Of a DNA stretch of 64,000 bases, positions 2,478 through 4,968 are shown in pieces. This DNA is from Enterobacteria phage vB_EcoM_IME340, in sequence record MH051916. One strand, 5' to 3'. Below the pieces are notes generated by a model that was not told the DNA's origin, did not search any database, and saw nothing but the letters and a program-made list of their open reading frames with translations. How positions within the stretch are numbered: position 1 is the stretch's first letter; every line of letters begins with the position of its first letter. Made by a program: the position numbers and the translations under genes.

Positions 2478-2978
2478 ATGAATATATTTGAAATGTTACG
2501 TATAGATGAAGGTCTTAGACTTAAAATCTATAAAGACACCGAAGGCTATTACACTATTGGCATTGGTCATTTGCTTACCAAAAGTCCATCACTTAGTGTT
2601 GCCAAATCTGAATTAGATAAAGCTATTGGACGTAATTGCAATGGTGTAATTACAAAAGATGAGGCTGAAAAACTCTTCAATCAGGATGTTGATGCTGCTG
2701 TTCGCGGAATTCTGAGAAATGCTAAATTAAAACCAGTTTATGATTCTCTTGATGCTGTTCGCCGCTGCGCATTGATTAATATGGTTTTCCAAATGGGAGA
2801 AACCGGCGTGGCAGGATTTACTAATTCTTTACGTATGCTCCAACAAAAACGCTGGGATGAAGCAGCAGTAAATCTAGCCCAATCTAAATGGTATCGTCAG
2901 ACACCTAATCGCGCGAAACGCGTAATCTCAACATTTAAAACAGGAACTTGGAAAGCGTATATATATGAAAACATATAG
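2478..2978 (+). CDS. e: lysozyme (endolysin), T4 gene e homologue
   Basis: 166-aa protein [35 protein letters not shown]... near-identical to T4 lysozyme as recalled. Confidence 0.97.
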
Positions 2979-3246
2979 TGAATTTTTATCAGAATCTATT
3001 CTTAACGAAGCTACTGACACATTTGCAACTAAGCTAGGTGCAGCTTTGGTTGAAGCTGAAAGTCTATTAGCACGTATTTCTGAACTTGCTAGTAAGATAG
3101 ATACTCGCAAATTTGAACGTACCAGCGATATCGTTAAGCTTGAAGCCTTGTTGCGTATGTGCGATAAACCAGAAGAAATCGCTAAGAACGGCTCGCTAAT
3201 GAAACAACGTCTTGAAAAATATATTTCAGGCGCTTCAGAAAAATAG
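2965..3246 (+). CDS. internal-protein-like head protein with capsid targeting sequence (93 aa)
   Basis: N-terminus [10 protein letters not shown] resembles IP capsid-targeting sequence MKTYQEFIAE; overlaps 3' end of e by 14 nt. Confidence 0.65.
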
Positions 3247-3247
3247 T

Positions 3248-3277
3248 GTTTACTTCCTCCAAGGACTTTGATACTAT
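3248..3277 (+). promoter_or_regulatory. early promoter (GTTTAC-N18-TACTAT)
   Basis: GTTTAC at 3248-3253 and TACTAT 18 nt downstream, upstream of denV. Confidence 0.5.
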
Positions 3278-3304
3278 ACATTCATCAACTACTTGGAGGA
3301 AATT

Positions 3305-3718
3305 ATGACTCGTATCAATTTAACACTTGTTTCTGAACTGACCGACCAACATCTTATGGCTGAGTATCGTGAATTACCACGCGTATTTGGTGCAGTCCGT
3401 AAACATGTTCAAAACGGTAAACGTGTAAAGGATTTTAAAATCTCTCCAACATTTATCTTAGGCACAGGTCACGTAACATTCTTTTATGACAAACTCGAAT
3501 TTTTACGTTTACGTCAAATCGAGCTAATCGCTGAATGCTTGAAACGTGGTTTCAAAATCAAGGACACGACTGTCCAGGATATTTCCGACATCCCTGTCGA
3601 ATTTCGTAATAATTATGTCCCGTCCGAAGCGTCCATTGCGATAAGTCAAGCTCGCTTAGATGAAAAAATTGCTCAACGCCCTACTTGGTACAAATACTAT
3701 GGTAAATCAATTTACTAA
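3305..3718 (+). CDS. denV: endonuclease V, pyrimidine-dimer DNA glycosylase
   Basis: [31 protein letters not shown]... matches T4 DenV as recalled; start moved to ATG after GGAGG. Confidence 0.95.
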
Positions 3719-3724
3719 GGAAAA

Positions 3725-3985
3725 ATGAAAATGTATCAAGAATTTATCGCTGAAGCAGATGCCAAAGGCCCCAAATTTAAAGTTAAAGCTTTCGTTGGTG
3801 ATGCCGAAGATTTTGGCTCATTAAAACGTAATGGGTATTTTTTCTTAGGTGGTGATGGTAAAGAAATCAACACCTATGCAAAACGTAGTGAAATTGCTTA
3901 TGTTGCTGCAAGTCCTAAAGTAGATGTTGACGATATTGGATACGATTTTAACAACTTCGGAATTATTTCTGGCGGTGAAGCTTAA
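3725..3985 (+). CDS. internal-protein-like head protein with CTS (86 aa)
   Basis: N-terminus MKMYQEFIAEA = IP capsid-targeting sequence. Confidence 0.7.
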   Translation: MKMYQEFIAEADAKGPKFKVKAFVGDAEDFGSLKRNGYFFLGGDGKEINTYAKRSEIAYVAASPKVDVDDIGYDFNNFGIISGGEA

Positions 3986-3988
3986 ACG

Positions 3989-4018
3989 GTTTACGCTTAA
4001 GTATTAATATGGTATAAT
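3989..4018 (+). promoter_or_regulatory. early promoter
   Basis: GTTTAC 3989-3994, TATAAT 4013-4018, 18-nt spacer. Confidence 0.6.
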
Positions 4019-4048
4019 TACTCTATCAAAACAAACAAGGAAACAAAA

Positions 4049-4363
4049 ATGAAAACATATAAAGAATTTATTGCAGAATCCGCCAACCAACGCGTTGAAG
4101 GTGGTTATATTTGGATTGAACAAGTTGAGCCACCGAGCCGCACTTCTACAGGTAAATGGAAAATTACTGTTGATGGTCCTGGTGGTAAACGTAGGACTCT
4201 TAAAGAAATTAATGGGTACTATGAAGAAGCTCTTTCGGATGCAGGAACTTACATGATGCAAATCATGATTAAAAACCCTGAAAACCGTTTTGCAGCTAAA
4301 GTCTTCCGACGCATCGGTAATAAACTTTATGACGCATACTCTAAAAACTTCCCTAAAGAATAA
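4049..4363 (+). CDS. internal-protein-like head protein with CTS (104 aa), IPII-like by size
   Basis: N-terminus MKTYKEFIAES; basic small protein. Confidence 0.7.
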   Translation: MKTYKEFIAESANQRVEGGYIWIEQVEPPSRTSTGKWKITVDGPGGKRRTLKEINGYYEEALSDAGTYMMQIMIKNPENRFAAKVFRRIGNKLYDAYSKNFPKE

Positions 4364-4389
4364 CATGAATTAAAACAATAGGAACAAAA

Positions 4390-4968
4390 ATGAAAACGTA
4401 TCAAGAATTTATTGCTGAAGCTTCTGTAGTAAAGGCCAAAGGCATTAATAAGGACGAGTGGAACTATCGTGGTGGAAACGGCTTTGACCCTAAAACAGCC
4501 CCTATTGAACGATACTTAGCTACAAAAGCTTCCGATTTTAAAGCTTTCGCTTGGGAAGGACTTCGCTGGCGTACCGATTTAAATATTGAAGTTGACGGAC
4601 TTAAATTTGCTCATATTGAAGATGTTGTTGCTAGTAACTTAGACGCAGCTTTTGTTAAAGCCGACAGTGATCTTCGTCGCTGGAATTTAAAACTGTTCTC
4701 TAAACAAAAAGGCCCGAAGTTTGTGCCTAAAGCCGGTAAATGGGTCATTGATAATAAATTAGCTAAGGCTGTCAACTACGCTGGTCTTGAATTCGCCAAG
4801 CACAAATCATCATGGAAAGGTCTTGATGCAATGGCTTTCCGTAAAGAATTTGCCGATGTTATGGCTAAAGGCGGCTTTAAGGCAGAAATAGATACCTCTA
4901 AAGGTACGTTTAAGGACGCTAATGTTCAGTACGCTTACGCCGTTGCTAATGCAGCCCGTGGTAATTAA
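4390..4968 (+). CDS. ipIII: internal protein III
   Basis: 192 aa; MKTYQEFIAEASVVKAKGINKDEW... matches T4 IPIII as recalled. Confidence 0.9.
   Translation: MKTYQEFIAEASVVKAKGINKDEWNYRGGNGFDPKTAPIERYLATKASDFKAFAWEGLRWRTDLNIEVDGLKFAHIEDVVASNLDAAFVKADSDLRRWNLKLFSKQKGPKFVPKAGKWVIDNKLAKAVNYAGLEFAKHKSSWKGLDAMAFRKEFADVMAKGGFKAEIDTSKGTFKDANVQYAYAVANAARGN

Follow-up and report, generated by a model that had tools for sequence, protein, structure and literature searches.

A probable T-even-type hypervariable internal-protein locus, with four cassette-like genes interleaved with denV, in Enterobacteria phage vB_EcoM_IME340

Between the lysozyme gene e and the gene vs.8 of Enterobacteria phage vB_EcoM_IME340 lie four small open reading frames (ORFs) whose products begin with nearly the same residues. 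The question raised by this locus is what these proteins are and what they might do once the phage meets its host. The DNA analyzed, called the window here, is a stretch of 64,000 nucleotides from this Tequatrovirus, a T4-like phage (sequence record MH051916). The locus is probably one of the two hypervariable internal protein (IP) loci of T-even-type phages, carrying four cassette-like IP genes interleaved with denV; this grading covers the whole of the best explanation, that is, the identity of the locus together with the mechanism proposed below. (It should be noted that the type of locus, its polymorphism, and its anti-restriction rationale have all been published; the finding is real but ordinary.) Two IP loci have been defined, one running from e to vs.8 and the other from 57B to tRNA, and all four ORFs fall within the first. 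Matches to PHROG and Pfam give the following order on the + strand:

1985-2440, + strand, nudE
2478-2978, + strand, e (T4 lysozyme/endolysin), 166 amino acids; Pfam Phage_lysozyme, PHROG endolysin, 94% identical to T4 e
2965-3246, + strand, IP93, Ip5-family internal protein precursor, 93 amino acids; phrog_3499
3305-3718, + strand, denV (endonuclease V, pyrimidine-dimer glycosylase); Pfam Pyr_excise, phrog_1183, 91% identical to T4 DenV
3725-3985, + strand, IP86, internal protein precursor of an unnamed family, 86 amino acids; phrog_2667, phrog_35655
4049-4363, + strand, IP104, Ip10-family internal protein precursor, 104 amino acids; phrog_3966
4390-4968, + strand, ipIII, internal protein III precursor, 192 amino acids; phrog_5341
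5149-5688, + strand, vs.8 homologue (P-loop protein), the conserved downstream flank; phrog_1488

The first line of evidence is the leader. The N-termini of all four proteins lie near MKTYQEFIAE, the capsid-targeting sequence (CTS) of the T4 internal proteins; IP86 has MKMYQEFIAE, IP104 has MKTYKEFIAE, and IPIII has MKTYQEFIAE itself. When all six frames of the window were scanned for MK.Y.EF, five matches were obtained, each at the start of a + strand ORF, where residue frequencies and 300 shuffles lead one to expect 0.02-0.03. Four of these are the ORFs starting at 2965, 3725, 4049, and 4390, just as the original prediction had placed them, and the fifth is gene 61.1 at 48699. With 5 matches against about 0.02 expected, the idea that the IP ORFs are chance ORFs is ruled out. 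In addition, a site of the form (L/I)xE, as recognized by the gp21 prohead protease, ends at Glu10 in 4 of 4 proteins (LSE in IP93, IAE in IP86, IP104, and IPIII); the consensus was taken from the T4 literature and from the length of IPI*, which at 76 residues is 95 less 19 (PMC3012670). IP93 has a second such site, LNE15, which is the one conserved among its Ip5 relatives, and alignment with these relatives suggests that IP93 may be cut after E15 (LNE/A, the slash marking the cut), either instead of or besides E10. The predicted mature proteins range from 8 to 20 kDa, with IP104 and IPIII basic (isoelectric point, pI, 9.6-9.7), IP86 acidic, and IP93 near neutral. At the DNA level, the first 33 nucleotides of the four genes are identical at 22-30 of 33 positions. 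That the four are genuine packaged IP cassette genes can be held with high confidence.

Beyond the leader, the four proteins part company. Likeness among them, and to T4 IPI and IPII, is confined to the first 11-18 residues or so, and the alignments of IP93, IP86, and IP104 with T4 IPI, IPII, and IPIII all end there. The original prediction had held that only the last gene is recognizably IPIII, and this was borne out: the ipIII product is 95.3% identical to T4 IPIII over 192 amino acids (expectation value, E, 8e-140) and matches phrog_5341 at E 2e-117, which makes it an IPIII, with a basic mature form of 182 residues predicted after the cut MKTYQEFIAE/A. It is also the only one of the four whose cargo is homologous to a GmrSD inhibitor (Ip1, Ip2, or Ip3). 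The other three had been called diverged, which is correct with respect to the T4 IPs beyond the leader; they are not orphans, however, since they belong to catalogued families, Ip5-like, Ip10-like, and phrog_2667.

IP93 matches phrog_3499, 'internal head protein', at E 1e-46. Its identity is 88% with VR25 ip5 and 47.6% over 84 amino acids with T2 Ip5 (E 1e-21), a full-length similarity that places it in the Ip5 family, and it is present at 95% identity or more in 231 phage records. Its mature form is predicted to have about 78-83 residues, with E10 and E15 as the candidate cuts. IP86 matches phrog_2667, likewise an 'internal head protein', is 70% identical to VR25 gp125, and is found in 215 phage records, in 149 of them at 90% identity or more; its predicted mature form, from the cut MKMYQEFIAE/A, has 76 residues and a pI of 4.9. 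An AlphaFold2 model of IP86 (predicted local distance difference test, pLDDT, 82.6) shows a small alpha/beta fold, which is generic and in which no likeness to known inhibitors was found. IP104 is 72.8% identical to VR25 'ip10' over 103 amino acids (E 7e-58) and matches 'Ip10 [Shigella phage SP18]', which places it in the Ip10 family. It occurs in 188 phage records (130 at 95% identity or more), including T4-like phages of Enterobacter and Klebsiella, and its mature form is predicted to have 94 residues and a pI of 9.6 (cut MKTYKEFIAE/S). Some records label the Ip10 family 'IpII', yet only the leader is common to it and T4 IPII. The model of IP104, with a pLDDT of 46.8, is unusable. An exhaustive phmmer search for IP104 through 1.8 billion representatives gave one true homologue together with weak, multi-stretch matches to giant repeat proteins; those to FG-GAP, filamin, and Calx-beta proteins were rejected as compositional or beta-repeat noise, and a filamin/Ig-like fold has no support from the model. 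A sequence search of the PDB with all four proteins returned nothing below E 0.07, and PADLOC gave zero matches. (The word-indexed homologue search gave 11 and 3 relatives, and the alignments are shallow.)

Each of IP93, IP86, and IP104 has counterparts at 97-100% identity in 130-230 deposited phages. This bears on the possibility that one or more of the ORFs are remnants in decay, open only through their youth or through hitch-hiking with the module. Such a remnant could look like IP86, which is split by a frameshift in phage UFV13 and has truncated variants in metagenomes. Since all three ORFs are intact and at least 90% conserved in 130-230 independent genomes, and since full-length orthologues that are 50-70% identical have been kept in other genera, decay is a most improbable explanation.

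The second line of evidence is the behavior of the locus in related phages. Over positions 2400-5100, two Escherichia phages, PaulHMueller and W143, are 98.4% identical to the window; a match to some or all of this region is found in 912 phage records, and 63, many of them Tequatrovirus genomes, cover 80% or more of the whole locus in a single piece. Across dozens of deposited phages the identity of the locus is 93-98%. Ten related loci were compared and each leader-bearing ORF was typed, with Ip5L, Ip10L, and IpIII standing for the IP93, IP104, and IPIII types:

Window: e, Ip5L, denV, IP86, Ip10L, IpIII, vs.8
W143: window order, plus IpII after IpIII
UFV13: window order, with IP86 frameshifted
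CHD94UKE2: without Ip10L
moha (Mosigvirus): without Ip10L
HMD-9: Ip10L replaced by an unrelated leader-bearing ORF of 132 amino acids
phi25-307 (Mosigvirus): all four IP genes of the window, with IpII and one more ORF in addition
VR25 (Gaprivervirus): e, ip5, denV, ip10, IP87, ip7, vs.8
T4: e, ipIII, ipII, denV
T2: e, ipIV; no denV

Presence/absence polymorphism between close relatives is thus seen in CHD94UKE2, moha, HMD-9, UFV13, and W143, and the IP genes behave as cassettes. The arrangement of e, Ip5, denV, variable IPs, and vs.8 is found in at least three genera (Tequatrovirus, Mosigvirus, and Gaprivervirus), and T4, in which the order is nudE, e, ipIII, ipII, denV, vs.8, is therefore just another variant. 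Consequently, the original prediction was right that the gene order, e-IP-denV-IP-IP-ipIII, departs from the e-ipIII-ipII-denV of T4, but its description of the locus as rearranged and expanded is apt only relative to T4, because many Tequatrovirus genomes, the Mosigvirus phages moha and phi25-307, and VR25 (Gaprivervirus) share the layout. IPII is absent from the window.

The module also appears to travel as a unit. In a comparison of the window with the Mosigvirus phages moha and phi25-307, Ip5L, denV, IP86, and IpIII show 95-100% protein identity, e shows 88%, and NudE shows 63-64%. That the module is 95-100% identical when the adjacent NudE is only 63-64% identical indicates lateral movement between genera, and the comparison, which spans window positions 1985-5688, suggests that the mosaic boundary lies within e or close to it.

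Two observations in relatives stand beside these comparisons. The 132-amino-acid ORF of HMD-9 (L008, 2447-2845), which starts MKTYQEFIAENVIPASKELLAM, is annotated as hypothetical and has no match among the reference IPs used. In W143 (L001), an RNA-like element that is described below occurs in full at 4617-4790, after ipII, and its 3' half recurs in diverged form at 4071-4178, between ipIII and ipII; the ipII cassette thus has a direct repeat on either side, an arrangement to be expected where recombination inserts or deletes a cassette.

It might be argued that the proteins are mainly structural, serving as core or DNA-counterion proteins that aid DNA condensation or ejection and having no specific host target. 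The basic character of mature IP104 and IPIII (pI 9.6-9.7) would suit such a role, as would the contacts that lysines of T4 internal proteins make with DNA phosphates (PMC3012670). However, the mature form of IP86 is acidic and that of IP93 close to neutral, the presence/absence polymorphism and the pseudogenization speak against a structural requirement, and the T4 IPs are non-essential, all three having specific targets (PMC12373910). A purely structural function is consequently quite improbable.

How such a locus is expressed and reshuffled may be read in part from its spacers, in which three elements were identified:

2444 and 2457 (2444-2464), + strand, two tandem T4-type late promoter motifs TATAAATA upstream of e, from a motif search
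3990-4018, + strand, early-type sigma-70 promoter in the spacer between IP86 and IP104, TTTACG-17-TATAAT with TG, from a consensus match
4971-4988, + strand, stem-loop AGGCC-N8-GGCCT, immediately following the stop codon of ipIII

The two TATAAATA motifs are the only exact late-promoter motifs within the locus, and late transcripts through e and the IP genes are presumed to come from them by read-through. The putative early promoter has the GTTTAC -35 sequence seen in T4 early promoters. The hairpin after ipIII, whose stem is kept and whose loop is variable in HMD-9 and moha, is likely the 3' end or terminator of an IP transcript. The 33-nucleotide 5' ends, the early promoter, and the post-ipIII hairpin are short homologies of the kind through which cassettes have been proposed to shuffle. 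Arbiol et al. 2010 (PMC2839356), citing Repoila 1994 and Comeau 2007, describe two highly variable IP loci in which more than 30 variants of the IPs occur together with promoter/stem-loop elements, and shuffling of the IP locus has been attributed to these elements (PMC2839356).

Within the module, denV is embedded among the IP genes and starts at ATG 3305, not at TTG 3293. The 3' end of e and the start of IP93 overlap by 14 nucleotides. At this junction (2955-2978), e is 162 amino acids long with an ATGA overlap to the next gene in W143, UFV13, and others, and is 166 amino acids long here; judged from a reading of the sequence, the longer e may have arisen by a TA expansion within the run GCGTATATATATGA. 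The end of T4 e differs again (164 amino acids).

Taken together, these features suggest the following mechanism. Transcription of each IP gene would be late and would probably start at the pair of late promoters that precede e, and IP104 and ipIII would probably be served by the early promoter at 3990 as well. By extrapolation from the T4 literature on packaging, cleavage, and injection, the CTS, of about 10 residues, would dock each precursor into the scaffolding core of the prohead, and gp21 would remove it by cutting after the glutamate of (L/I)xE, that is, after E10 or, in the Ip5-like protein, E15. The mature proteins (about 8-20 kDa) would remain in the head with the DNA and would be injected with it. 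In the cell, they would act as stoichiometric, variant-specific inhibitors of the host nucleases that attack glucosyl-hydroxymethylcytosine DNA, either GmrSD-family Type IV restriction enzymes or McrBC-like enzymes. The array itself would be reshuffled between phages by recombination at the near-identical CTS-coding 5' ends and at the conserved intergenic promoter/stem-loop elements, which would account for the presence/absence polymorphism of the cassettes.

The window contains the genes that would make such inhibitors useful. It encodes a dCMP hydroxymethylase (42559-43299), an alpha-glucosyltransferase (30954-32156), and a TAGT-family glycosyltransferase of 282 amino acids (43290-44138, + strand), the last lying between gene 42 and uvsX, where T4 has beta-gt. 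Because a hydroxymethylase and two glycosyltransferases are encoded, the phage DNA should be a substrate for Type IV restriction. The TAGT glycosyltransferase together with a T4-type alpha-gt may point to glucosylation of hydroxymethylcytosine that is T2/T6-like (gentiobiosyl) and not T4-like; the pattern bears on which Type IV enzymes attack the DNA.

Insight into the targets of such proteins comes from work on other phages. The CTS directs packaging, and IPI* blocks GmrSD (PMC3012670); IPIII is required for infection of ECOR17 (Srikant et al. 2022, PMC9391042); Ip1, Ip2, and Ip3 of T4 each inhibit a distinct GmrSD-family Type IV enzyme (Silas et al. 2025, PMC12373910); and Bas37_0260, which also bears the leader, inhibits McrBC according to a 2025 preprint (bioRxiv 10.1101/2025.11.20.689424). 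Silas et al. 2025 (PMC12373910) have proposed that all proteins of both Ip loci target GmrSD variants. The original prediction had stated that at least one T4 IP blocks a host restriction system, as Ip1, Ip2, and Ip3 all do (PMC12373910), and had singled out the cargo proteins as the most plausible uncharacterized anti-defense candidates. They are indeed plausible cargo, and 'uncharacterized' holds for their biochemical targets; the anti-defense idea is not new, however, because it is already the published working model of the field (PMC12373910). For the Ip5-like, 86-amino-acid, and Ip10-like families, anti-Type-IV activity would be assigned by analogy, and the chance that their targets are in fact Type IV enzymes seems about even. 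These families are widespread and conserved, and it would be sensible to include them in screens that use wild hosts stripped of their O-antigen.

Several observations weigh against an anti-restriction role for these proteins or against the mechanism as a whole. When ip4-10 were assayed against 15 GmrSD classes, no reproducible interaction was seen (PMC12373910), with the caveat that the ip5 and ip10 of that study may differ from the families in the window. No virion proteomics or functional data for the IP93, IP86, and IP104 families were found in the searchable literature, and structure prediction yielded no hint on function. IP86 is acidic, unlike the basic, DNA-associated IPII and IPIII, and its frameshift in UFV13 means that it is dispensable in some hosts at least. 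Finally, the motif search of the locus found no exact late promoter directly upstream of individual IP genes, and late IP expression would for this reason rely on read-through from e.

Some of these points would equally suit another possibility, namely that the three proteins are injected anti-defense or host-takeover effectors whose targets are other first-response systems or host functions, and not GmrSD or McrBC. The lack of reproducible activity of ip4-10 against the 15 GmrSD classes would then be readily understood, as would the absence of sequence relationship among the four cargo domains and the generic alpha/beta fold of IP86, unlike that of known inhibitors. T4 Alt, an ADP-ribosyltransferase that is packaged and injected with the DNA, provides a precedent for a different function. 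Yet each of the four CTS proteins whose target is known (Ip1, Ip2, Ip3, and Bas37_0260) inhibits a Type IV enzyme, and the diversity of GmrSD is very large, only 15 classes having been sampled. Targets other than Type IV enzymes are unlikely; if they do exist, such an inhibitor would extend the capsid-delivered 'first-strike' strategy beyond anti-restriction. The preferred reading remains a hypervariable IP locus whose products would be injected to inhibit Type IV restriction enzymes.

Two further parts of the window deserve description, and either could matter more than the IP finding. The first is gene 61.1 (48699-48863, + strand, 54 amino acids), which lies just upstream of the primase gene 61, has the leader MKTYKEFIKE, and belongs to phrog_1823, where it is annotated as hypothetical. 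A pairwise alignment (E 1e-8) matches its residues 2-38 to residues 57-93 of gp23, the major capsid protein of T4, with 43% of positions identical; I8-K9-E10 falls on L63-T64-E65, where gp23 is cleaved during maturation, and the remainder resembles the N-terminal arm of mature gp23*. The gene family is represented in 1395 phage records, including T4-like phages of Aeromonas and Acinetobacter. The IP leader itself may derive from, or mimic, the propeptide junction of the capsid protein. According to a published remark, genes of the IP type do not occur elsewhere than in the two IP loci (PMC2839356); the leader-bearing gene 61.1 runs against this remark. No annotation or description of gene 61.1 as a mimic of the gp23 junction was found in the searchable literature, and its interest lies in its being a CTS-bearing mini-protein that mimics the capsid maturation junction. 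Downstream of the primase gene 61, a separate ORF of 216 amino acids (50162-50812, + strand) with the HNH-like motif ERHHIIPRCMGG is probably a free-standing homing endonuclease; between gene 61 and this ORF, an ORF of 66 amino acids lies on the opposite strand (49891-50091).

The second is found in the non-coding stretch of 180 nucleotides that separates ipIII from vs.8:

5009-5087 (conservation to about 5130), + strand, conserved RNA-like element of about 80 nucleotides, with a helix P1 enclosing a hairpin P2, followed by a 35-nucleotide core

Positions 5009 to about 5130 are nearly invariant in T4, T2, W143, and UFV13; in T4, where the element lies at about 64,860-64,940 on the complement strand, the stretch comes after denV and its annotation makes it the N-terminal part of vs.8. 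The invariant core, ACCTGTAATAAGGTCGAGCC..AG.GCGGTAA, is shared without change by several genera of T4-like phages, by Vequintavirus, by Pseudomonas phage PsgM04F, and by metagenomic phage contigs. In Vequintavirus it lies about 600 nucleotides upstream of a tRNA array, and in PsgM04F it lies inside one. Upstream of the core, four sequence classes form the same two nested helices from different sequences: P1 as GGGAA/UUCCC, GGGAG/CUCCC, GGGG/CCCC, GGAAC/GUUCC, AAAGG/CCUUU, AAAGC/GCUUU, or AAAGA/UCUUU, and P2 as CCUCAU/AUGAGG, CCUUAU/AUAAGG, CACAU/AUGUG, or CUACG/CGUAG. The element occurs once per genome, and a covariance model finds exactly one copy of it per locus in 53 of 56 loci. In the alignment from this model, which was fitted to the model itself, all 4 pairs of P1 vary on both sides, and the covariation score is 0.226, compared with 0.119 in shuffled alignments (0 of 500 reach the observed value), and is lower in every slid register. 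G·U pairs favor the + strand. The minimum free energy of the single sequence is not significant (z = -0.62), and it is therefore covariation that makes the case for the structure.

Rfam has no match for the element even at E 10, and no annotation or description of it was found in the searchable literature. It was rejected as a tRNA or transfer-messenger RNA, and it is unrelated to T4 rnaC and rnaD. The genes downstream of the element differ between phage families; in Vequintavirus the downstream gene is unrelated to vs.8, and a vs.8-specific leader was consequently rejected as well. A bacterial origin was likewise rejected, 185,579 species genomes having given 3 matches, all in contigs of metagenome-assembled genomes. 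It may be a stand-alone small RNA or a processing or stability element. What gives the element its interest is an invariant core within a covarying fold across unrelated virulent phage families. That one or more of the three cargo proteins not found in T4 are injected inhibitors of a defense system other than GmrSD or McrBC, and that this element could be a new class of phage noncoding RNA, is a doubtful proposition when the two are taken jointly.

The element also touches on the start of vs.8. The N-terminal 17-40 codons of vs.8 (5098-5148 in the window; 64,846-64,912 in T4, NC_000866) overlap the conserved non-coding element in different frames. As annotated, vs.8 has 219 amino acids in T4, and the window has an ORF of 196. 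The phrog_1488 alignment begins at residue 19 of this ORF when it is started at 5098, and at residue 2 when it is started at 5149, so that ATG 5149 is probably the true start. Because the profile starts at this methionine, vs.8 is probably over-extended in reference annotations.

Among known systems, the closest to the locus are the T4 internal proteins, which have the same CTS, the same (L/I)xE site, and the same location between e and vs.8, the ipIII of the window being a 95% identical orthologue. In contrast to T4, the window lacks IPII, has three cargo domains that are not found in T4, carries denV inside the array instead of after it, and has an e that overlaps the first IP gene. VR25 ip5, from the e locus of VR25/RB69-type phages, occupies the same position right after e as IP93, whereas the Ip5 of T2 and T6 belongs to the ipI locus; in T2 it sits beside 57B, and its leader of 15 residues lacks the E10 site. 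The Ip10 of the Gaprivervirus phages VR7, VR25, and SP18, like its Enterobacter and Klebsiella relatives, has the same leader and the same locus as IP104; in VR25, however, ip10 precedes IP87, and in the window the order is swapped, with the 86-amino-acid family before IP104. Bas37_0260, likened here by its description, has a non-homologous cargo behind the same leader, an IP locus, and a Type IV target, but it lies in the ipI locus, unlike the e-vs.8 IPs of the window. Finally, the PeSL-like cassettes of the hyperplastic regions of T4-type phages are likewise small, non-essential genes with early-promoter/stem-loop spacers and insertion/deletion polymorphism between close relatives. The elements of the IP locus are considered analogues, and not homologues, of the PeSLs of RB49 and phi1 (PMC2839356), and to this scheme the window adds recombination homology through the CTS-coding 5' ends of the IP genes.

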